Source of the DNA: Pseudomonadota bacterium
Lineage (GTDB): Bacteria; Pseudomonadota; Gammaproteobacteria; SURF-13
Reading direction: 5' to 3'
DNA length: 64,000 nucleotides
Assembly: GCA_041695325.1 (NCBI GenBank)
Contig: JBGFRC010000001.1
Span: forward strand, 7,686 to 71,685
Shown here: positions 15,486-62,893 of the stretch, piece by piece
Position numbering within the stretch: the first letter of the stretch is position 1
Layout of the letters: each line of letters starts with the position of its first letter
Translations under genes and position numbers: made by a program
The notes under the pieces: model-generated
The model's database searches: none
What the model was told of the DNA's origin: nothing
Seen by the model: only the letters and a program-made list of their open reading frames with translations

Positions 15486-15723
15486 TAGCAGTTCGTTGAA
15501 AAACGAACTGCTAAGCGCCACAGGGGTGAGCCATGCCGGTGGCATGGCGAACGGACGCACAGGACGTGCGCCCTGGACTTTTCCGCGGAGCCGGGACGGC
15601 GCAGCGGAAAAGTGCCGCATCGAAAATCAAACACACAAGTGTTTGATTTTCGGAGCGAGGCGCGGACATGTGCCGCGCCAAGTGAGTTGAAAATCGCCAA
15701 GGATGGCGATTTTCAACAAACTG
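15486..15723 (+). repeat. ~240-bp multi-hairpin intergenic repeat element, copy A
   Basis: About 95% identical to the reverse complement of 59923-60162. It contains the nested palindromes gcagttcgTTGAAAAAcgaactgc, gccatgccggtggcatggc, cttttccgc..gcggaaaag, cgaaaatcaaacacACAAgtgtttgattttcg and gttgaaaatcgcca..tggcgattttcaac. Confidence 0.8.
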
Positions 15724-18519: not shown

Positions 18520-20220
18520 ATGCGCACCTCACAGCTATTACTGCCCACACTCAAGGAAACACCCTCCGACGCCGAAGTCATCAGTCATCAGTTGATGCTG
18601 CGTGCGGGCATGATCCGCAAACTCGCCGCTGGCATCTATAACTGGCTGCCCCTCGGCCTGCGCGTGCTGCGCAAGGTGGAGGCCGTTGTGCGCGAGGAAA
18701 TGAGCCGCGCCGGCGCGCAAGAGCTGCTGATGCCCGCGGTGCAGCCCGCCGAGCTGTGGCAGGAATCCGGGCGCTGGGGGCAATACGGCCCTGAACTGTT
18801 GCGCCTGCAAGACCGTCACCAACGCGACTTCTGCTTCGGCCCGACGCACGAGGAGGTCATCACCGATCTGGTGCGCAACGAAATCCGCAGTTATAAACAA
18901 CTGCCTGCGATCTTTTACCAGATCCAAACCAAATTCCGCGACGAACCGCGCCCGCGGTTCGGCGTGATGCGCGCGCGCGAATTCCTGATGAAGGATGCGT
19001 ATTCATTTCACGCTGATAAAGCCAGCCTGGAAAAAACCTATCAGGTGATGCATGACGTCTATACCCGCATCTTCACCCGTCTTGGGTTAAGATTCCGCGC
19101 CGTGTACGCCGACACCGGCGCCATCGGCGGCACCGGTTCGCAGGAGTTCCACGTGCTCGCCGACTCCGGCGAAGACGCCGTCGCGTTTTGCCCGGATTCG
19201 GACTACGCCGCCAACGTGGAACTAGCCGAGGCCGTCGCGCCCGCGGGCAAGCGCCCTGCCCCACAACAGACGATGCAAATCGTGGACACGCCGGGCAAAC
19301 ACAGCATCGAAGAAGTCAGCGGCTTTTTAAAAATGGATCCCGCCCAGTGTCTGAAGACGCTGCTGGTGCAGGGCAAGGAAGGCGTCGTCGCGCTGGTGTT
19401 GCGCGGCGATCACGAATTGAACACGGTAAAAGCGGCCAAGCTGACGCAGGTTTTCGCCCCGCTGACACTGGCCACCCCGCAGCAGGTTCAGGACGCGGCC
19501 GGCTGCGCGCCGGGATCGGTGGGCCCGGTGGGGCTAAAGATTCCCGTCATCGCCGACCGCGCCGCCGCGCACGCAAGCGACTTTGTGTGCGGCGCAAATC
19601 AGGACGGCAGGCATTTCACCGGCGTCAACTGGAGCCGCGATCTGCCGGAGCCGCTGGTCGCGGACATCCGCAACGTCGTGCAAGGCGACCCTTCCCCCGA
19701 CGGCCAAGGCACGCTGTCCATCGCGCGCGGCATCGAGGTCGGCCACATTTTCCAGCTTGGCGGTAAATACTCCAGCGCCATGGGCGCGAGCTATCTCGAC
19801 GAAAACGGGCAATCGCAAATCATGGAGATGGGCTGCTACGGCATCGGCGTATCGCGCGTGGTGGCCGCCGCCATCGAACAGAACCACGACGCACGCGGTA
19901 TCATCTGGCCTGTGCCCCTTGCGCCGTTTCACGTCGCGCTGCTGCCGATGAACATGCACAAGTCGCCGCGCGTGCAGGAAACGGCGGAGAAACTCTATAC
20001 AGAATTAACACACGCCGGGATTGAGGTGTTATTCGATGATCGCCCCTTGCGCGCGGGCGTGATGTTCGCCGACATGGAGCTGATCGGCATCCCCCATCGC
20101 ATCGTCGTCGGCGAACGCGGCCTCGACGCCGGAACGGTGGAATATCAGAACCGTCGCGACGCGCAAAGCCGGAATGTACCGCTTGCTGAAATCACCGGCC
20201 TTCTGAAAGCGCGCTTATAA
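18520..20220 (+). CDS. proS: proline--tRNA ligase
   Basis: 566-aa class II aaRS with an editing domain and full-length ProRS similarity. Confidence 0.95.
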
Positions 20221-20532
20221 GCCGCTCTCCCTCCAGTCGGCCAGAAACTGCTCCAGGCCGAGGGTAGTGAGCGGGAGCCTGACCGTCACATTGGGCGCAA
20301 TCCTGGCCAGTTCGCGGCCCTGCTTGAGCATGCCTTCATAATCCATCGCAACGACCTCGGCGCTGACCGGGCCTTGCACCATCTCGCAGATCATCGCAAT
20401 CTGCTTATGAAAGCTGATACCGGTTTCCTTGGCTAGCAGCGATGGATTGGTGGTCACACCGTCGGCCATGCCCAACTCCACGGCTTTGCGTATATCCTCA
20501 AGATGTCCCGTGTCTATGGGGTAGCCATCCAA
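20215..20532 (-). pseudogene. internally deleted, start-less copy of the transaldolase/fructose-6-phosphate aldolase gene (paralog of 26240-26890)
   Basis: Its translation matches residues ~5-77 of the intact copy fused directly to the last 16 residues (…VRLPLT|[16 protein letters not shown]). The junction lies at the microhomology cccgctcac. There is no ATG at the 5' end, where the sequence diverges from the intact gene. Confidence 0.8.
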
Positions 20533-20574
20533 ACATCATGCCCAATCTCTGAAGGAGGTCATATGCCGAAGAAC

Positions 20575-20625
20575 CAAGCCTGGCACTGGTTTTCGGGAAA
20601 TTAACGCTCACAACTACCCACACGA
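20575..20625. repeat. 50-bp junction motif, copy 1 (ttcgggaaattaacgctcacaactacccacacgacttccagaagagcc)
   Basis: Near-identical to 26080-26130. Both copies lie between a tal-derived segment and IS630-like remnant sequence. Confidence 0.6.
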
Positions 20626-20673
20626 CTTCCAGAAGAGCCCCAAAATCTATATTCGCGCATTTTTGAGGATCAT

Positions 20674-25773: not shown

Positions 25774-26075
25774 TCACGCCGCAAGAGGCAAAGGCGAGGG
25801 CTCGGCCGCGAACTTTCTGAGCAGCCGCGTGAGATCATCGCGCGTGAATCGCCAGTCAAACGGCGTGGCCATGCTCTCCAAGTGGTCCTGGAAGCGCAGC
25901 AATCGATCTGCGACCTCCGAAAGGCAGGAGAAGTCGTTGGGGGTAAGCGCCTTGCGCTGGACGATGGAGAAATAGATCTCGATCTGGTTGAGCCAATTGG
26001 TGTGAACCGGACCGTGAACGAGGACCAAGTTCGGGTAGGCCTGGGTCAGGCGTCGCACGCAGGGCTGGCCGCCTG
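25774..26075 (-). mobile_element. IS630-family transposase gene remnant (C-terminal ~100 codons only)
   Basis: Translation ...NLVLVHGPVHTNWLNQIEIYFSIVQRKALTPNDFSCLSEVADRLLRFQDHLESMATPFDWRFTRDDL matches the C-terminus of DDE_3/IS630 transposases. The frame is closed by a stop immediately upstream, so the N-terminal ~240 codons are missing. Confidence 0.7.
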
Positions 26076-26079
26076 GCGC

Positions 26080-26130
26080 GTGTTTCCGGGAAATTAACGC
26101 TCAAAACTACCCACACGACTTCCAGAAGAG
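26080..26130. repeat. 50-bp junction motif, copy 2
   Basis: ttccgggaaattaacgctcaaaactacccacacgacttccagaagagcc. It is followed at 26137-26215 by a second copy of the tal 5' region, including ATGAAATTT and then a stop. Confidence 0.6.
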
Positions 26131-26239
26131 CCTAAGAAATTTCATCACCACCTCCTGCCTTCAGGCATGACACCGTCAAGTTTCATGCCCAAAGCCAAAT
26201 GATGTTAGAATTTCGCGTTCGTTATGTATAAAAGCATGC

Positions 26240-26890
26240 TTATAAGCCGCTCTTCTTCCAGTCGGCCAGGAACTGCTCCAGGCCGAGGGTGGTGAGCGGG
26301 TGTTGGTACATCTGCTCCAGCACCTTGAACGGCAGGGTGGTGACGTGCGCGCCGATGCGCGCGGCTTCGATTACGTGGGTGACGTGGCGGATAGAGGCCA
26401 CCAGCACCTGTGTCTTCCATTCGTAATTGCGGTAAATGTCCACGATTTCCCCGATGAGCTTCATGCCGTGCTCGCCGACGTCATCCATTCTGCCCACAAA
26501 GGGTGACACAAACGCCGCTCCCGCCTTGGCGGCGAGGATGGCCTGCGCGGCGGAAAAGCACAAGGTGGCGTTGACCATCACACCCTCCTTGCTCAACACC
26601 GAGCAGGCGCGCATGCCGTCAGGCGTGAGCGGGAGTTTGACCGCGACGTTGGGCGCGATTTTGGCCAGCTCGCGGCCTTGTTTCAACATCCCCTCGTAAT
26701 CCGTTGCCACCACTTCAGCGCTGACCGGGCCTTGCACCATCTCGCAGATCATCGCAATCTGCTTATGAAAGCTGATACCGGTTTCCTTGGCTAGCAGCGA
26801 TGGATTGGTGGTCACACCGTCAGCCATGCCCAGTTCCACGGCCTTGCGAATATCCTCCAGATGTCCCGTGTCTATAAAAAATTTCATCAC
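26240..26890 (-). CDS. fructose-6-phosphate aldolase / transaldolase (TalC/Fsa subfamily)
   Basis: 216 aa MMKFFIDTGHLEDIRKAVELGMADGVTTNPSLL..., the short transaldolase family. Intact paralog of the pseudogene at 20215-20532. Confidence 0.9.
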   Translation of the reverse strand: MMKFFIDTGHLEDIRKAVELGMADGVTTNPSLLAKETGISFHKQIAMICEMVQGPVSAEVVATDYEGMLKQGRELAKIAPNVAVKLPLTPDGMRACSVLSKEGVMVNATLCFSAAQAILAAKAGAAFVSPFVGRMDDVGEHGMKLIGEIVDIYRNYEWKTQVLVASIRHVTHVIEAARIGAHVTTLPFKVLEQMYQHPLTTLGLEQFLADWKKSGL

Positions 26891-26982
26891 CGCCCCCTGC
26901 CTCCAGGCGTTACACAGTCAAGCTTCATGCTTAAAGCCAAATGATGTTAGAATTCCGCGTTTGTCAGCGCCATGGAGTATGC

Positions 26983-32499: not shown

Positions 32500-32603
32500 G
32501 ACGTCACTCCTTGTCTTTTGACGTTTCCACTGTAAGGTAAAAAAACGTCGTCAATCTTTGATCTGGCGCAAGGTTTTCACCCGCATGCTTTTTAAAATCC
32601 ACT

Positions 32604-37146: not shown

Positions 37147-37836
37147 TTAACGCACGCCACATTCGAGTACATCGTCCTTTAGCGCCGCGCACATGCGCCA
37201 CATATATTCTTCCTCATAGGCGCTGCGCTGAAGAAAGGAAGGGTCGAGCACCTTATCCGGCAGAAACTTCTGCAGCACGTAACGCCGGGCCCCCTTTATC
37301 AATTTTCCTATCGCCAGAATGTCCTTTTCGTCCAGTTGCGATTTGACCACGGTGGTCCTGAATTCATAGGATACGCCGGAACCCATGACTAATGCAATGC
37401 TGGCGGCGATGTTGCGCGTATCCACGTCCCTATTGATGACCTCCCGGTATTTTTCAAGAGGGGCCTTCACGTCCATGGCGATGTAATCCACCAGCCTGCG
37501 GTCAATTATTTGCTTCAGCGCTTCCGGATTGACGCCGTTGGTGTCAAGCTTCACCAGGAAGCCGAGATTTTTCACCTGGCGCATGAATTCCGGCAAATCG
37601 GCCTGCAGGGTCGGCTCGCCTCCCGTGATGGTGACGGCGTCCAGTATGCCGCAGCGCGTGCGCAAAAAATCAAGCACCTCCTGTTCCGGAATCAACTCCG
37701 CATAGCGCTCGGGCAAGACGAGTTCCGCATTGTAACAATAGCCGCAGCGAAAATCACAGCCGCGGGTGAAGATCACGGCGCAGATTTCGTCAGGGTAATC
37801 TATCAGGGAAACCTTCTGTAATCCTCCGATGTCCAC
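37147..37836 (-). CDS. nrdG: anaerobic ribonucleoside-triphosphate reductase activating protein (radical SAM)
   Basis: CDFRCGYCYN radical-SAM cysteine motif; directly downstream of nrdD. Confidence 0.9.
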   Translation of the reverse strand: MDIGGLQKVSLIDYPDEICAVIFTRGCDFRCGYCYNAELVLPERYAELIPEQEVLDFLRTRCGILDAVTITGGEPTLQADLPEFMRQVKNLGFLVKLDTNGVNPEALKQIIDRRLVDYIAMDVKAPLEKYREVINRDVDTRNIAASIALVMGSGVSYEFRTTVVKSQLDEKDILAIGKLIKGARRYVLQKFLPDKVLDPSFLQRSAYEEEYMWRMCAALKDDVLECGVR

Positions 37837-37838
37837 CG

Positions 37839-39926
37839 CTATACCTTGTACGTCCTTCTGCGCGCAAATTCTTCCTGCTTACCCTTGTTCCACTGGTCGG
37901 TCGGACGTAAATATCCCACGATGCGCGAGTACACCTCGCAGCGCGCGCCGCATTGGGGACACTGCGCGTATTGTCCCGCGAGATAGCCGTGCGCGGGACA
38001 AACACTGAAGGTGGGAGTGAAGGTGAAATAAGGCAGGCGGTAGCGCTCGCAAATCCTGCGCACCAGCTTTTTTATCACCCGGGGCGACTCGATCCTTTCT
38101 CCCACGAAGATATGCAGCACGGTGCCACCCGTGTATTTCGTCTGCAGATCGTCCTGCAGATCCAGCGCCTCAAAAAAGTCATCGGTGTAGTGCACCGGCA
38201 GGTGCGTGGAATTGGTATAAAACGGCTGCGCACCCTTCCTATAATGCTCCTCGTTGGCGCAAATAATATCCGGAAATTTCTTTTTGTCCTTTTGCGCCAG
38301 ACGATAGGCCGTGGACTCCGCCGGCGTGGCCTCGAGGTTATAGTTGTTGCCCGTCTCCTGCTGGAACTCGATGAGCGTGGCACGCATGAAATCGAGTATC
38401 CTGAGCGCGAAGGCGCGCCCGGCCGGGCTCGCGATAGTCTCGCCCAGCAGGTTCAGGCAGGCCTCGTTCATGCCCACCAGGCCGATGGTGGAAAAGTGAT
38501 TCTTCCAGTAGGCGCCGAAGCGCTGTTTGATGTCGCGCAAATAATATTTGACGTAGGGATAAAGCGATTTCTCCGTAAGCCGCTCCAGGGTCTTGCGTTT
38601 GACCTCCAGGCTATCCTTGGCAAGCCGCATCAGGCCGGACAGGCGCTGCTTGAACTCCTCTTCGTCCGCGGAAAGATAGCCCAGGCGCGGCATGTTGATG
38701 GTGACCACGCCGATCGAACCGGTGAGCGGGTTGGCACCGAAGAAGCCGCCGCCCCTGCGCTCCAGCAGGCGGGTGTCTATTCTCAGCCGGCAGCACATCG
38801 AGCGCGCATCTTCCGGCTTCATGTCGGAATTGATAAAGTTGGAAAAGTAGGGCACGCCGTACTTCGCCGTCATGCGCCACAGGCCCTCCAAGTCCGGGTT
38901 GTCCCAGTCAAAATCGCGCGTGACGTTGTAGGTGGGTATCGGGAAAGTGAACACGCGTCCCGCGGCGTCGCCATCCTGCATGACTTCGCAAAACGCCCGG
39001 TTGAACAAATTCATCTCATTCTGGAAATCCTGGTACGGTTTATCCTGCGCCACGCCGCCGATGATGACGCCTTGTCCGGCAAGATAGTCGGGCGGGCGCA
39101 AGTCCAACGTGATATTGGTAAACGGGGTCTGAAATCCGACGCGGGTCGGCACGTTGATATTGAAGATGAATTCCTGCACGGCCTGCTTTACTTCCGCGTA
39201 GTCCAAGCCGTCATAGCGGATAAACGGCGCGAGCAAGGTGTCGAAGTTGGAAAAGGCCTGCGCCCCCGCCGCCTCGCCCTGCAGGGTATAAAAGAAATTC
39301 ACCACCTGTCCCAGCGCGCTGCGGAAATGCCTGGCGGGGCGGCTTTCTATTTTTCCCTGCACGCCTTTGAAACCCTGCGTCAGCAGATCGGTGAGGTCCC
39401 ATCCCACGCAGTAAACCGAGATGGCGTTGAGGTTGTGGATGTGGAAATCGCCGTCCGCATAGGCCTGCCTGATTTCCGGACTGTAGACTTTATTGAGCCA
39501 ATAGACCTTGCTGACTTCGGATGAAATATAGTTGTTGAGCCCCTGCAGGGAATAGGTCATGTTGCTGTTTTCGCTCACCTGCCAATCGAGCTGCCGCAGA
39601 TAATGATCCACCAGCTCAACGTCAGCCTTGGCGATGATTTCGCGCAGCGCCGCGTGTTGCGCGCGATAGAGGATGTAGGCCTTGGCGGTGGCATGATAGG
39701 GCGAGGACAACAGCACCTCTTCCACCGCATCCTGGATTTCCTCCACGCTCGGCGTCCTGGCGCCCAGCTTCCGGTGCGCGGCGTCCACTACCTCGGCGGT
39801 CAACGCCTCGGCGACGTCAGGGCCGAATTCGCCCGTGGCCGTTCCCGCGCGCGCGATGGCGCGAGTGATTCTGGCGGCGTCAAAGGCCGTTACCGTCCCA
39901 TCGCGCTTGATGATGGCTTCAAACAT
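37839..39926 (-). CDS. nrdD: anaerobic ribonucleoside-triphosphate reductase (class III RNR)
   Basis: 695 aa; C-terminal Zn ribbon CPAHGYLAGQYAQCPQCG and glycyl-radical region ...SRIVGYL... Confidence 0.93.
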   Translation of the reverse strand: MFEAIIKRDGTVTAFDAARITRAIARAGTATGEFGPDVAEALTAEVVDAAHRKLGARTPSVEEIQDAVEEVLLSSPYHATAKAYILYRAQHAALREIIAKADVELVDHYLRQLDWQVSENSNMTYSLQGLNNYISSEVSKVYWLNKVYSPEIRQAYADGDFHIHNLNAISVYCVGWDLTDLLTQGFKGVQGKIESRPARHFRSALGQVVNFFYTLQGEAAGAQAFSNFDTLLAPFIRYDGLDYAEVKQAVQEFIFNINVPTRVGFQTPFTNITLDLRPPDYLAGQGVIIGGVAQDKPYQDFQNEMNLFNRAFCEVMQDGDAAGRVFTFPIPTYNVTRDFDWDNPDLEGLWRMTAKYGVPYFSNFINSDMKPEDARSMCCRLRIDTRLLERRGGGFFGANPLTGSIGVVTINMPRLGYLSADEEEFKQRLSGLMRLAKDSLEVKRKTLERLTEKSLYPYVKYYLRDIKQRFGAYWKNHFSTIGLVGMNEACLNLLGETIASPAGRAFALRILDFMRATLIEFQQETGNNYNLEATPAESTAYRLAQKDKKKFPDIICANEEHYRKGAQPFYTNSTHLPVHYTDDFFEALDLQDDLQTKYTGGTVLHIFVGERIESPRVIKKLVRRICERYRLPYFTFTPTFSVCPAHGYLAGQYAQCPQCGARCEVYSRIVGYLRPTDQWNKGKQEEFARRRTYKV

Positions 39927-39966
39927 CGCTCCGGCTCACTCCTTGCGGCAACACGGCATTAACCGC

Positions 39967-40362
39967 TCACAGGCGCGGCGTCGCCTCGTGCGCGTAGGTC
40001 TTTTCACGCTGGCTTTGACAGGTGAAGCAGCGTTTGGCGGTGGGATAGACGCTGAGCCGCTCGTAGCCGATGTCGCCGCCGCAATCAATGCAGACGCCGT
40101 AGCTCAAGTCGGCCAGGCGCAGCCACGCCGCTTCGATGTCGCGGATTTCCTGGATCTGGCGGTCAAACAGGGCGGCGTCCATGTCCGCCAGCATGTCGGC
40201 CACCGATTCATCGCCGATATCCAATACGCCCGAAACCAGGTCGGCATAGTGCTTTTCTCCGGAACGAATCAGCTCCGCGCGCGCCTCGTCGCGCAGTTTG
40301 GTGAAATTGTTGTTCAGCAGTTGACGCAGTTGCTTCAACTGCGCGTTGGTCAGATTGGCCAT
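39967..40362 (-). CDS. TraR/DksA-family C4 zinc-finger regulator
   Basis: C-terminus CIDCGGDIGYERLSVYPTAKRCFTCQ, a four-Cys DksA/TraR finger; ~131 aa. Confidence 0.8.
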   Translation of the reverse strand: MANLTNAQLKQLRQLLNNNFTKLRDEARAELIRSGEKHYADLVSGVLDIGDESVADMLADMDAALFDRQIQEIRDIEAAWLRLADLSYGVCIDCGGDIGYERLSVYPTAKRCFTCQSQREKTYAHEATPRL

Positions 40363-40533
40363 GGCATATCTCCCTTTAAAGTAGGGCTTAAGGAACCTCT
40401 GATTAAGTCAGAAGTTCCTTGCGGTGCAGGGACGCACTGCCATTTTTCAAACACAAAGTGTTTGAAAAATGGAGACCAGGATGGACTTATTCAGAGCTTC
40501 ATATAAGATACCTCAAGCGCTCCTCGAACGGGT

Positions 40534-40547
40534 TTGATGTAGATCAA
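40534..40547. promoter_or_regulatory. perfect FNR-type box TTGAT-GTAG-ATCAA in the divergent region between the dksA-like/nrdDG genes and the dodecin gene
   Basis: Sequence ttgatgtagatcaa matches TTGAT-N4-ATCAA. The spacing suits a class II promoter with a taaact -10 for dodecin (ATG at 40612) and a tatctt -10 on the other strand. Confidence 0.5.
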
Positions 40548-40611
40548 CTTCCACGCTGCAGGTGTTTTGTAAACTGTCATGGTCTTATATCAGGCGCAAA
40601 AGGAGGCCGTT

Positions 40612-40815
40612 ATGCCGCATATACTGAAAGTGATCGAGGTGCTCGCCGAGTCGGATAAGAGCTGGGAAGACGCGGCAGGGCAAGCCATAGCCCGTGCGGC
40701 CAAAACCCTGCACGGCATCAAATCCATCTACATCAAGAATTTCGAGGCCAAGGTGGAAAACAACAAAATCATCAGCTACCGCATCAATGCAAATATTTCA
40801 TTCCTGCTGGATTAG
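40612..40815 (+). CDS. dodecin-family flavin-binding protein
   Basis: MPHILKVIEVLAESDKSWEDAAGQAIARAAKTLHGIKSIYIKNFEAKVENNKIISYRINANISF, the 67-aa dodecin fold. RBS aaaggagg 6 nt upstream. Confidence 0.75.
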   Translation: MPHILKVIEVLAESDKSWEDAAGQAIARAAKTLHGIKSIYIKNFEAKVENNKIISYRINANISFLLD

Positions 40816-40838
40816 CGCAAATATTCCACCGTGACCAA

Positions 40839-41477
40839 TCAGCGGCCTTGCTTGCCGTCGCGCAGAATGGCAACCACCTCCTCGTCTTCCACCTGGGGGA
40901 AATCGAGATAAAACTGCCCCACCGCCTGGAAATACTCCGGTGTGTGCAGGCAGATCACCTCGTCGGCGTAGCCGGCAACCTTGCGCAGCGTATCGGGCGG
41001 CGCCACCGGCACGGCGGCGATCAATTTCTCCGGCTTCTTGGCGCGCAGCGCGTGCAGGGCCGAGATCATGGTGGCGCCCGTGGCCAGGCCGTCGTCCACC
41101 ACGATCACGACGCGGCCTTGCGGGTCCACCGGGGGGTGCACCGGCGTATATTGGGCGCGGCGCTTGCGCATGGTCGCAAGCTGGGCCTGCTTCTCGCGTT
41201 CAATGTATTCAGGGGTGGCGCCCACGCTCGCGGCATAATCCGCAATATAGGTCCAGCCGCTCTCATCCACTGAACCGATGGCGAATTCGGGGCTGCCCGG
41301 CGCGCTGATTTTCCTGACCAGCACCACGTCCATCTCGCCGCCCAGTTCATCGGCGATCAATTTCGCCATGGGCACTGCGCCGCGCGGGATGGCGAGAATT
41401 AAAGGATCCCTGCCCCGGTAATGAGCAAGCTTTTCGGCAAGCCGCCGCGCGGCTTCACCGCGATTTTTAAAGATCAT
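40839..41477 (-). CDS. phosphoribosyltransferase-family protein (type I PRTase fold)
   Basis: MIFKNRGEAARRLAEKL... and PRPP-binding loop VVIVVDDGLATGATM; ~212 aa. Confidence 0.75.
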   Translation of the reverse strand: MIFKNRGEAARRLAEKLAHYRGRDPLILAIPRGAVPMAKLIADELGGEMDVVLVRKISAPGSPEFAIGSVDESGWTYIADYAASVGATPEYIEREKQAQLATMRKRRAQYTPVHPPVDPQGRVVIVVDDGLATGATMISALHALRAKKPEKLIAAVPVAPPDTLRKVAGYADEVICLHTPEYFQAVGQFYLDFPQVEDEEVVAILRDGKQGR

Positions 41478-44249: not shown

Positions 44250-44377
44250 TCCAGGATTAACCCTAGCACAGCCACGCTCGGCATTTGTTTGATCTAGCGC
44301 AAAGCAAGGCAACAATCACTGGCGGTGCGGCCAGCCGCGCTATAAAATTGAAAACAAGCGTCCCAGAGGAGAGCCGC

Positions 44378-50724: not shown

Positions 50725-51728
50725 TGCAAGACACCCACATCAGCCTCGCGCACGGCAACGGCGGGCGCTGCATGCGCGAGCTCATCGAACGCCTGTTCGC
50801 GCATCACCTGGCCAATCCGCTGCTCGACATTGACGCCGATGCCGTGCCGCTGCCGATGCCGGAGGGCGAGATCATGCTCACCACGGACGGTTTCACCGTG
50901 CAGCCGCTGGAGTTTCCCGGCGGCGACATCGGGGCGCTCGCCGTACACGGCACGGTGAACGACCTCGCGGTGGCTGGCGCGACGCCGCTCTATCTCACCC
51001 TCAACGCGTTGATTGAGGAAGGCCTGGAAGTCGCCCAGCTCCGGCGCATCATCGCCAGCCTCGCGCGCAGCGCGCGGGAAACCGGCGTGCGCGTGGTGGC
51101 GGGCGACACCAAGGTCGTGCCGCGTGGCGCGGGCGGCGGTCTGTACCTTTCCGCCAGCGGCGTGGGTGCGCGCGCGCCTGGCGTACAGTTGGGCATAACG
51201 CAGATCAGGGAGGGTGATGCGATACTGGTCAGCGGGCCGGTGGGCGATCACGCCGTGGCCGTGCTGCTCGCACGCGAACAATTCGGCCTGCGCGGAAACA
51301 TATACTCCGACATGGCCTGCGTGCTGCCGCTCACCCGCGCCCTGCTCGCCTTTGCCGGTCTGCGCTTCATGCGCGATCCCACGCGCGGCGGACTCGCCAC
51401 CGTGCTGCACGAAATTTGCCGTGCAACCAATCTGGGCGTGCATCTTGAAGAAGCCGCCATACCCATCAGGCCCGCCGTGCGCTCGGTATGTGACATGCTC
51501 GGCTATGACCCGCTCTATCTCGCCTGCGAAGGCCGCGTAGTCGCGGTGATTGCACCCGATCAGGCGCAAGCGGCGCTCGCAGTCTGGCGCACCGCGCCGC
51601 TGGGCGACCAGGCCGCCATCATCGGACACATGACAGGCAACCCGGCGCGTGTAATCCTGGAAACCTACATCGGCGGCAGACGCATACTGGAAGAACTGGA
51701 AGACGACCCCCTGCCGCGTATCTGCTGA
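50724..51728 (+). CDS. hypE: hydrogenase expression/formation protein HypE
   Basis: AIR-synthase-like fold ending ...DDPLPRIC with the conserved C-terminal Cys; 334 aa. Confidence 0.95.
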   Translation: MQDTHISLAHGNGGRCMRELIERLFAHHLANPLLDIDADAVPLPMPEGEIMLTTDGFTVQPLEFPGGDIGALAVHGTVNDLAVAGATPLYLTLNALIEEGLEVAQLRRIIASLARSARETGVRVVAGDTKVVPRGAGGGLYLSASGVGARAPGVQLGITQIREGDAILVSGPVGDHAVAVLLAREQFGLRGNIYSDMACVLPLTRALLAFAGLRFMRDPTRGGLATVLHEICRATNLGVHLEEAAIPIRPAVRSVCDMLGYDPLYLACEGRVVAVIAPDQAQAALAVWRTAPLGDQAAIIGHMTGNPARVILETYIGGRRILEELEDDPLPRIC

Positions 51729-51897
51729 CAACACGCCTGGACCCCGGTCATCGAATCCAGGGTCGAACGGGCATCCCTTGTGACGGGACTTTCCTATTTG
51801 TCGAAAAAAAGGTATTATTTCGACACATTATTCCGATCTGTCGATGCGATCAACAGGTTCTGCGGACGTGTCGAACCACGAGATACTTGATAAACAA

Positions 51898-58879: not shown

Positions 58880-59056
58880 GTACGACAAAGGACCGCAAGC
58901 GGCGCTCGCTGTCTGGCGCGCCCTGCCGCTGGGCCAACAAGCCGCCATCATCGGGCGCGTGACGGCACCCCGCCGCGCGCAACCCTGGAAACCCCCATCG
59001 GCGGCAGACGCACCCTGGAAGAACTGGAAGATGACCCCCTGCCGCGCATTTGCTAA
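58880..59056 (+). pseudogene. degenerate, frameshifted duplicate of the hypE 3' end
   Basis: About 85% nucleotide identity to 51565-51731. It encodes ...QAALAVWRALPLGQQAAIIG... then, after a 1-nt frameshift, ...IGGRRTLEELEDDPLPRIC-stop, mirroring the HypE C-terminus. Confidence 0.7.
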
Positions 59057-59122
59057 AAACCTTACATACAAGGCCCGTATCAATATCCCGCTCGATTATT
59101 CTTCGCGCTTTAGGTATCCCGC

Positions 59123-59896
59123 ATGTTCTGGAGTTTAAAATCCTGGCGGCGTCGCCGTATTTTGAAGCGCCGCTCGTTACCGGATGGTATATGGCGGCGC
59201 GTGCTGGAGCGGCTTGTCTTTCTGCAAGACTTGACTCAAGAGGAGCTTGGCCGGTTGCGCGCTTGGGTTGTGCTGTTTTTGCATGATAAGAAATTCAGTA
59301 CGGCGGGCGGACTGGCGCTCACCGACGAAATGCGCGTGATGATTGCGGCGCAGGCCTGTATTCTGATTCTGAATCTCGACCTTGACTATTACGACGACTG
59401 GGTGGAAATCATCGTCTACCCGGATGAATTTATTCCCGATCATGAATACGAGGACGAAACGGGCGTCGTGCATCGTGTGCACGATCCGCTCAGCGGTGAA
59501 TCGTGGCCTCATGGGCCGGTCATTCTGTCGTGGGCGGACGCCGCCGGCCGCGGGGCGGCACCGGGCTATAGCGTGGTGATACACGAATTCGCCCACAAGC
59601 TCGATATGCGCAACGGCGAGGCCAATGGCTTTCCGCAGTTACATGCGGAGATGAGCCGGCCGGCCTGGAGCGCTGCATTCGGCGCGGCTTACGCCGATTT
59701 TTGCATGAAGGTGGATGCAGGCGATGAGACGGAGATTGACCCCTACGCCGCGGAAAGTCCGGCGGAGTTCTTCGCGGTCGTGAGTGAAGCATTCTTCACC
59801 ATCCCGCACAGCGTGCAGCAAATGTATCCGGCGGTTTACCGGCAATTGGCGCTCTTTTACCGCCAAGATACTCTGGCGAGGCGCGGCAACCAATAA
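59123..59896 (+). CDS. mtfA: M90-family zinc metallopeptidase (MtfA-like)
   Basis: HEFAHKLD zinc motif and MtfA-like length (257 aa). Confidence 0.8.
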   Translation: MFWSLKSWRRRRILKRRSLPDGIWRRVLERLVFLQDLTQEELGRLRAWVVLFLHDKKFSTAGGLALTDEMRVMIAAQACILILNLDLDYYDDWVEIIVYPDEFIPDHEYEDETGVVHRVHDPLSGESWPHGPVILSWADAAGRGAAPGYSVVIHEFAHKLDMRNGEANGFPQLHAEMSRPAWSAAFGAAYADFCMKVDAGDETEIDPYAAESPAEFFAVVSEAFFTIPHSVQQMYPAVYRQLALFYRQDTLARRGNQ

Positions 59897-59922
59897 ACGA
59901 ATGAGGCCAGCCAGCCGTACTA

Positions 59923-60162
59923 CCAGTTTGTTGAAAAAGGCCGTCCTGGCCTTTTTCAACTCGCTTCGGCGCGGCACATGTCCGCGCCTCGCTCCGAAAA
60001 TCAAACACTTGCGTGTTTGATTTTCGATGCGGCACTTTTCCGCTGCGCCGTCCCGGCTCCGCGGAAAAGTCCAGGGCGCACGTCCTGTGCGCCCGTTCGC
60101 CATGCCACCGGCATGGCTCACCCCTGTGGCGCCTGGCAGTTCGTTTTTCAACGAACCGCTAC
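59923..60162 (-). repeat. ~240-bp multi-hairpin intergenic repeat element, copy B (inverted relative to copy A)
   Basis: Its reverse complement aligns at about 95% identity with 15486-15723, including all internal palindromes. Confidence 0.8.
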
Positions 60163-62250: not shown

Positions 62251-62748
62251 TTACTGAATCGCGATACTGTGACGCTTGGCCTTTTCCCGTTTGGGAATGG
62301 TCAACTCCAGCAAGCCGTCCTTGAATACTGCCTTGGCCCTGGCATCGTCCACCTCCGCCGGCAAGGCTATCGTGCGCGTAAACGCCCCGTGCATGATCTC
62401 ACAGCGGCAATACTCGCCCTTTTCCTCTTTTTCCTCGCGACGGGTGCAGCCCTTGATGGTGACGCTGTTCTCCGTCATGGACACATCCAGATCCTTCTTA
62501 TCCACGCCGGGAAGCTCCGCGCGCACCAGGATTTCATCGTCGCGGTCCACGACGTCCGCGCGCGGCGTCAGCTCGCCCGTCAAATCGCCCCACAGCGGCC
62601 GCGCCCAGCTTAAGGGCCGCATCCAGCCGCGTGGAAACATTCTTTCAAACATCTGTTCCATTTCCTCGAACGGGCTCATGATATGCATGGGGGCGGCCTT
62701 CTGCACCTCCTGCCCTTTGGCGGCAACTTGTTTCGTTTCGTTAGCCAT
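62251..62748 (-). CDS. Hsp20/alpha-crystallin family small heat-shock protein
   Basis: Alpha-crystallin domain ...VRAELPGVDKKDLDVSMTENSVTIKG...; start taken at the second ATG (MANETKQ), which has an AAGGAGGAA RBS. Confidence 0.88.
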   Translation of the reverse strand: MANETKQVAAKGQEVQKAAPMHIMSPFEEMEQMFERMFPRGWMRPLSWARPLWGDLTGELTPRADVVDRDDEILVRAELPGVDKKDLDVSMTENSVTIKGCTRREEKEEKGEYCRCEIMHGAFTRTIALPAEVDDARAKAVFKDGLLELTIPKREKAKRHSIAIQ

Positions 62749-62893
62749 GGTCTGTTCCTCCTTCATTTAGCGGGAAAATACCCGGTTACCACGCAACCTA
62801 ACGCGCAACCTTATATAAAATATTAAAAGGCTGCATCGTTCGCGCCTTGATATAGATCAATTTTCAGCGTGTCCGCCCCGCCGGCAAGAACCA

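Follow-up and report, generated by a model that had tools for sequence, protein, structure and literature searches.

A 249-bp intergenic region (40363-40611) was analysed within a 64-kb stretch of gammaproteobacterial DNA, which is referred to as the window. The region separates a dodecin-like gene on the plus strand from a DksA/TraR-like gene, nrdD and nrdG on the minus strand. The following features were assigned to the locus and to a second site elsewhere in the window.

37147-37836, minus strand: nrdG, radical-SAM activase (TIGR02495 NrdG2, 222 bits, above cut-off)
37839-39926, minus strand: nrdD, class III (anaerobic) ribonucleotide reductase (Pfam NRDD, 669 bits, plus ATP-cone; NCBIfam above cut-off)
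39967-40362, minus strand: DksA/TraR-family C4 zinc-finger gene, 131 aa, which opens the minus-strand unit (Pfam PF01258, 45 bits)
40391-40500, no strand: MITE-like palindromic insertion in the DksA-like leader (absent from relatives, inverted termini, three hairpins)
40505-40510, minus strand: predicted -10 hexamer TATCTT of the DksA-like/nrdDG promoter (seven of the nine lineages have it at 22-23 nt from the box)
40534-40547, no strand: predicted FNR/CRP-family binding site TTGATGTAGATCAA (consensus match and conservation in nine lineages)
40570-40575, plus strand: predicted -10 hexamer TAAACT of the dodecin promoter (22-nt spacer to the box, invariant A2 and T6)
40600-40606, plus strand: ribosome-binding site AAGGAGG of the dodecin gene (read from the sequence, kept in relatives)
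40612-40815, plus strand: dodecin-family gene, 67 aa (Pfam PF07311, 85.5 bits)
62847-62860, no strand: perfect FNR-type box TTGATATAGATCAA, the second of the window, upstream of the minus-strand Hsp20-family gene at 62251-62748

On the minus strand, the gene calls of the first-pass annotation agreed with Pfam and NCBIfam, and its gaps of 40 nt between the DksA-like gene and nrdD and of 2 nt between nrdD and nrdG were confirmed. The adjacent nrdD and nrdG form a pair of class III reductase and activase. Co-transcription of the three genes is supported by these short gaps and by the lack of a minus-strand terminator, from which we infer a single transcription unit. The DksA-like protein scored below the cut-off of all NCBIfam DksA/TraR models. 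The cysteines C91, C94, C112 and C115 of its C4 finger are invariant in 17 homologs, as are D48, G50 and D51 of the acidic stretch D48-I-G-D51-E-S53, which resembles the DxxDxA tip of DksA.

The dodecin-like gene starts at 40612; an alternative ATG upstream at 40579 is not conserved in relatives. Its product matched Pfam PF07311 over the full length at a cut-off of 22.5 bits and was beneath both NCBIfam equivalog cut-offs (NF043052 with 41.2 vs 75 and NF041389 with 33.8 vs 100). Among solved structures, 3onr and 2vxa come closest. In the H. halophila protein, the Trp of RWFEV acts as flavin clamp; it aligns with the Ser of KSIYI, and the dodecin of M. tuberculosis (3onr) likewise has no Trp at this position. 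The gene product had initially been described as a flavin-storage protein. The family assignment stands, while flavin storage is a family label and not a finding, given the scores below the NCBIfam cut-offs and the exchange of Trp for Ser.

The sequence TTGATGTAGATCAA is centred at 40540.5 and matches TTGAT-N4-ATCAA exactly, so the perfect FNR box claimed at 40534-40547 was right in both sequence and position. Two exact matches are present in the 64-kb window, starting at 40534 and 62847, whereas dinucleotide-preserving shuffles contained a mean of 0.01 per window and reached two matches in 0 of 100 cases. When one mismatch was allowed, no further site was gained across the window. The TTGAT-N4-ATCAA core is recognised by many members of the CRP/FNR family. 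Since several paralogues have it in common, oxygen is not proven as the signal. A gene of the CRP/FNR family was not found within the window. A tblastn search of the window with an approximate E. coli FNR query had a best E-value of 0.096, which was considered spurious; the corresponding fnr candidate at 59837-59992 was rejected as a weak match located in no credible ORF.

No sigma-70 promoter with -35 and -10 elements was detectable on either strand of 39800-40900, in keeping with activator-dependent promoters. On the plus strand, the hexamer TAAACT lies 29.5 bp from the centre of the box, which would place the site at about -41.5 relative to a predicted transcription start near 40582. On the minus strand, TATCTT is 30.5 bp away from the centre, with a predicted start near 40498 and the box at about -42.5. 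Both distances are within the 29-31 bp from the -10 edge that characterise class II sites, as reckoned for predicted starts. The box precedes the DksA/TraR-like gene by 178 bp and the ATG of nrdD by 614 bp, and an FNR-type box immediately before nrdD was not found. NrdR boxes are common in nrd promoters of Proteobacteria, and the first-pass annotation had brought up such a box upstream of nrdD for comparison. A search for ACACWATATATWGTGT with up to three mismatches yielded zero matches anywhere in the window, and NrdR control of nrdDG was rejected on these grounds.

Relatives were collected from species-representative genomes, for which an alignment of the DksA-like protein served as query, and contigs with close dodecin homologs were then added. 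The same divergent pair of dodecin and DksA-like genes was present in eight further uncultured gammaproteobacterial lineages. The DksA-like proteins were 98% identical in L001 (SURF_13), 94% in L002, 72% in L003 and approx. 62% in L087/88/89; the remaining lineages with the divergent pair are L090, L091, L092 and L093/94. The gene order, nrdG-nrdD-DksA-like gene on one side and dodecin-phosphoribosyltransferase-Prs-like-RtcB-archease on the other, is kept in all of them except L003.

A phylogenetic footprint was obtained by aligning the nine intergenic regions with the box as anchor. The box pattern T-TTGA[T/C]-nTAG-ATCAA is nearly invariant with a mean pairwise identity of 94%, compared with 45-50% for the spacers on both sides and 32% for the DNA further out. 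Comparisons between the distant groups gave 90% identity for the box, 35% for the spacer and 21% farther out. No other element of the intergenic region is as well conserved as the box. The spacer between the box and the dodecin-side hexamer is exactly 22 nt long in nine of nine lineages. The hexamer itself varies (TAAACT, TACACT, TATGTT, TATGAT, TACGAT, CATGCT and CATATT) and always retains A2 and T6, the two most critical positions of a -10 element. The class II placement with a TAAACT -10 element at about 40570, which had been proposed for the dodecin gene from this one sequence, is supported by this constant spacing and by a predicted position of -41.5. The proposal that the box could also serve the minus-strand unit gained support as well, as an identical TATCTT is present at a distance of 22-23 nt in seven of the nine lineages and would be the -10 element of that unit. 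Four of the seven, the window and L001-L003, have a spacer of 23 nt, and L090, L092 and L093 have one of 22 nt, which corresponds to a leftward site at -41.5 or -42.5. The presence of a conserved FNR-type site midway between two predicted back-to-back promoters is well supported by these alignments.

The natural variants of the locus, namely loss of nrdDG, a start codon within the box and an insertion at the predicted leftward +1, show which half of the region is under stronger constraint. L003 does not contain nrdDG, and the methyltransferase gene that follows nrdG in the window comes directly after the DksA-like gene; the box and both -10 elements are kept. As nrdDG is present in more distant lineages, it was lost in L003, and the retention of the box after this loss means that the site is not specific for nrdDG. 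In L087/88/89 (3857-3870 in L087) and L091 (2161-2174), the box contains the start codon of the DksA-like gene, and the sequence on the strand of this gene is GGAGAAATTGATCTATGTCAAAT. Within TTGATCTATGTCAA, both the start codon and the ribosome-binding site are embedded in the box and its flank. TATCTT is absent from these lineages, the dodecin-side hexamer is still found at 22 nt, nrdDG is present, and the dodecin leader is longer by approx. 67 nt. A sigma-70-like promoter for the DksA-like/nrdDG unit was not found in 3400-4250 of L087. The loss of TATCTT indicates that the leftward promoter is dispensable or replaceable in relatives, while the geometry on the dodecin side survives in the variants and marks the dodecin promoter as the invariant partner and the constant target of the box.

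The two further hairpins that had been reported for the region are present, at 40390-40420 (13-nt arms, 12 of 13 paired) and 40440-40472 (15-nt arms, perfect), together with a third, G+C-rich one at 40421-40440. They form no part of the control region and belong to a MITE-like insertion that is found only in this genome. In comparison to L001-L003, the alignment contains ~110 extra nt between TATCTT and the ribosome-binding site of the DksA-like gene, and this block is absent from L001, L002, L003, L087 and L090-L093. Its termini are imperfect inverted repeats of 17 nt (40393-40409 and 40484-40500) that match at 15 of 17 positions. The core palindrome (TTTTCAAACAC-N3-GTGTTTGAAAA) was recovered from six contigs in a metagenome scan. 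Among them, L086 carries a relative of 152 nt (2147-2298) that shares the termini and all three hairpins and has one hairpin more, and one of its hairpins shows compensatory base changes with respect to the window copy. Two ORFs, one of 438 aa and a hydrophobic one of 118 aa, lie upstream of it, in a context unrelated to that of the window. Partial relatives occur in L081 and L083, and the core palindrome alone was found in the unrelated contigs L082 and L084 (28% GC) and twice in tandem in L085. The window contains a single copy, and a possible TAAG target duplication is inconsistent between the window and L086. Inverted termini of 17-19 nt and three to four hairpins are shared by the elements of the window and L086. 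Judged by its structure and distribution, the putative insertion at 40391-40500 is a MITE-like mosaic palindromic element unrelated to the box. A role of the hairpins as attenuator or operator was rejected because the whole block is an insertion with inverted termini that is absent from relatives and has a homolog in L086.

The leader RNA with the insertion folds at z = -7. The insertion begins at the predicted leftward start, and the mRNA of the DksA-like/nrdDG unit would thus open with three stable hairpins. The sole hairpin with a T-run, which resembles a terminator, reads on the plus strand and should therefore not terminate this mRNA. The insertion at the predicted start may have changed the output of the leftward promoter. 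Known RNA families were searched as well: no Rfam family reached its gathering threshold in the window, a permissive scan of 40300-40700 returned sub-threshold chance matches only, and the long dodecin leader of L087 had no Rfam match, even in a permissive scan. A riboswitch or other known RNA in either leader was rejected accordingly.

The window contains several other repeats. Copies of a 194-nt inverted repeat with 97% complementarity are located 44 kb apart at 15486-15679 and 59968-60161. Direct repeats with 86% identity (51565-51732 and 58894-59060) lie at the 3' end of a hypE-like gene and bracket ~7.3 kb with type I restriction-modification-like genes, identified by translation only; this arrangement suggests the insertion of an island that duplicated its target. 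Several direct repeats with 87-92% identity (20206-20639 and 26071-26964) bracket another ~6 kb. Among these repeats is a transaldolase-like gene fragment present in duplicate, and a transposase-like fragment adjoins at 25774-26058.

The second perfect box of the window points to further members of the same putative regulon. A TAATAT hexamer (62820-62825, minus strand) lies 28.5 bp from its centre upstream of the Hsp20-family gene, a distance compatible with class II, and this arrangement is read here as evidence for one common regulon. Two genes similar to pyruvate-dehydrogenase E1 alpha and beta, again by translation only, follow the Hsp20-family gene. A perfect box was also present upstream of archease-RtcB in L092. 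FNR-like boxes with two mismatches are located at 32558-32571 (TTGATCTGGCGCAA) and 44289-44302 (TTGATCTAGCGCAA) and have the right half CGCAA in common. The former lies in the divergent region between HPF and RtcA, both named from their translations, the latter between archease and hypC.

The DksA-like family was inspected more widely in loci L001-L080, which comprise 843 kb and contain 16 perfect FNR-type boxes. Five of the 16 are situated not more than 400 bp upstream of the DksA-like gene (L001, L002, L003, L049 and L058). A general link of the family to nrdDG or dodecin was rejected, as 77 of the 80 loci have neither neighbour. Other neighbours of the family in these loci encode Usp, RtcB, Hsp20 and phosphoribosyltransferase.

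Outside the clade, dodecin homologs of ~80-85% identity are encoded directly upstream of archease-RtcB in the Nitrospirota L095/L096 (2768-7371), L099 (3125-7305) and L101 (4026-10074). In L095/L096 and L101, genes for phosphoribosyltransferase, LigD_N and a ribosome hibernation factor follow and an Hsp20 gene is nearby; in L099 a Usp gene takes the place of Hsp20. FNR boxes upstream of dodecin were not found in the four loci scanned, L095 and L096 (Nitrospirota), L097 and L098. The neighbourhood in Nitrospirota suggests that the dodecin homolog may belong to a set of stress or dormancy genes.

The architecture of the locus can be compared with well-studied promoters. Of the 23 FNR-activated promoters of E. 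coli whose starts are known, 19 carry the site at -41.5 ± 4; in ydhY and fnrS it is at -42.5 (PMC3688515). Like the class II FNR promoters of E. coli (narG, dmsA, nirB, ydhY, fnrS), those predicted here combine a site with the consensus TTGATnnnnATCAA at about -41.5 ± 1 with the lack of a usable -35 element. They differ in that one site would be in class II position for two divergent -10 hexamers ~60 bp apart, with predicted starts on both sides. Activation of divergent promoters from one CRP site has been shown in E. coli, and the divergent nir promoters of denitrifiers share NNR/Dnr boxes. The locus would resemble such single CRP-family sites, with one dimer site between back-to-back promoters.

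For the individual genes, precedents exist in other regulons. E. coli nrdDG uses two FNR sites. As in E. coli and P. aeruginosa, the anaerobic reductase operon is located downstream of an FNR-type box, but here a DksA/TraR-like gene intervenes, no box stands right before nrdD, and the window contains no NrdR box. The E. coli nrdD gene carries an FNR ChIP peak (PMC3688515), and in P. aeruginosa, nrdD (PA1920), the TraR-type gene PA4577 and ibpA appear in tables of genes that depend on Anr or are induced anaerobically (PMC8575079; PMC8087004). The main text of a study on the Anr core regulon (PMC6588701) does not mention TraR, DksA or nrdD. Similar to PA4577 and ibpA, a TraR/DksA zinc-finger gene and an Hsp20 gene are found behind FNR-type boxes in the window. 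Unlike PA4577, the DksA-like gene is joined to the nrdDG unit in this clade, and the likeness is drawn at the level of the family. With nrdD, TraR/DksA-type and Hsp20 genes reported under FNR or Anr, three of the four gene types considered here have a precedent. The fourth is dodecin, which, as the first-pass annotation had remarked, is not usually tied to anaerobic control; the literature searched contained no report of dodecin under FNR control and no text that joins the two. In mycobacteria, Acg and Fsq are hypoxia-linked flavin sequesterers under DosR, Fsq is protective during hypoxic growth, and the M. tuberculosis dodecin is described as DosR-independent (PMC13494985). The dodecin-like protein would parallel Acg and Fsq as a small protein of the flavin-sequestering type under a putative low-oxygen regulator, whereas it belongs to another family, the dodecins, and its flavin binding is putative.

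Taken together, it is likely that one FNR-type site serves two back-to-back class II promoters and that the dodecin-like gene and the DksA-like/nrdDG unit are co-induced. A dimeric FNR-type activator of the CRP/FNR family would bind the single site in the 249-bp region, where both promoters are devoid of a -35 element. To the right, RNA polymerase would use TAAACT (40570-40575), start near 40582 and transcribe a leader of ~30 nt followed by the dodecin-like gene. To the left, it would use TATCTT (40510-40505), start near 40498 and produce a single transcript of the DksA/TraR-like gene, nrdD and nrdG. The active regulator, presumably in the absence of oxygen if it is FNR or Anr, would recruit RNA polymerase on either side from its position at about -41.5 and -42.5, and both units would be induced together under anoxia. 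In this genome alone, the leftward leader would begin with the 110-nt MITE-like element and its three stable hairpins, through which transcription is expected to proceed, as they are not terminator-like on the minus strand. A single dimer would have to serve both sides on the same template. Two polymerases cannot flank one site at -41.5/-42.5 simultaneously, and the two directions may therefore compete rather than fire together.

The stronger constraint on one half raises the question whether the box activates the dodecin promoter only, with the DksA-like/nrdDG unit driven by another, unrecognised promoter and TATCTT unused. This would agree with a dodecin-side geometry kept in nine of nine lineages vs seven of nine on the DksA-like side, with the start codon inside the box of L087 and L091, where nrdDG is still there, and with the box that L003 kept after the loss of nrdDG. 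Nevertheless, we regard this as distinctly unlikely: seven lineages share the exact TATCTT, 22-23 nt from the box, in surroundings of only ~46-50% identity, 39800-40900 contains no other promoter-like site, and anaerobic induction is the behaviour expected of nrdDG. The reverse assignment, in which the box serves only DksA-like/nrdDG and dodecin is expressed independently, is very improbable. The invariant spacing and the A2 and T6 of the dodecin hexamer in nine lineages, including two without the DksA-like promoter and one without nrdDG, speak against it, even though nrdDG is a textbook FNR target and the literature searched does not bring dodecin and FNR together.

The same architecture could also be operated by another CRP/FNR paralogue of the Dnr/NnrR or FixK type. 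Its cue would be nitric oxide or an upstream two-component signal, in place of direct oxygen sensing by an Fe-S cluster. The recognition of the TTGAT-N4-ATCAA core by many family members is compatible with such a regulator, as is the lack of a regulator gene in the window, and the right half CGCAA common to the weaker sites at 32558 and 44289, which belong to the same gene island, could hint at a second specificity. However, the set of genes with perfect boxes (nrdDG, TraR/DksA-type and Hsp20) mirrors the oxygen-responsive Anr/FNR regulons, and no sequence feature favours nitric oxide, so that a paralogue of this kind seems rather unlikely. The probability that the palindrome matches by chance or is a repeat without regulatory function is negligible. 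The motif is small, but two sites face 0.01 expected per window, the box is 94% identical in nine lineages with flanks of 21-45%, and the only repeat element of the region is the separate MITE-like insertion. Activation of both promoters from one FNR-type site thus remains the preferred reading.

As far as can be judged from the sequence, the putatively shared FNR-type box follows an ordinary regulatory scheme, to which dodecin adds a mildly new member. The regulatory principle is textbook knowledge and the value of the finding is accordingly incremental. The locus may offer a clear case from nature in which a single FNR-type site is in class II position for two divergent promoters, and the new point is the predicted membership of dodecin in an FNR regulon. 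A more far-reaching idea, which we put forward tentatively and hold to be possible rather than probable, is that this dodecin subfamily is no general flavin store but a fixed member of a cross-phylum toolkit for low oxygen and dormancy, which would be under an FNR-type regulator in this clade. The proposed toolkit comprises Hsp20, Usp, a ribosome hibernation factor, RNA repair by archease-RtcB, phosphoribosyltransferase and the oxygen-independent ribonucleotide reductase. It draws support from the dodecin homologs directly before archease-RtcB in the Nitrospirota loci L095/96, L099 and L101, from the position of dodecin next to the phosphoribosyltransferase-Prs-RtcB-archease operon in this clade and from the FNR-type boxes that several of the island's promoters carry. 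In mycobacteria, DosR controls a comparable set of genes. Under anoxia and upon re-oxygenation, the dodecin might then keep flavins or a different ligand sequestered. A physiological trigger for dodecin in Proteobacteria is not described in the literature searched, and the prediction from this locus is that a dodecin-family gene would be induced by anoxia alongside the anaerobic ribonucleotide reductase.
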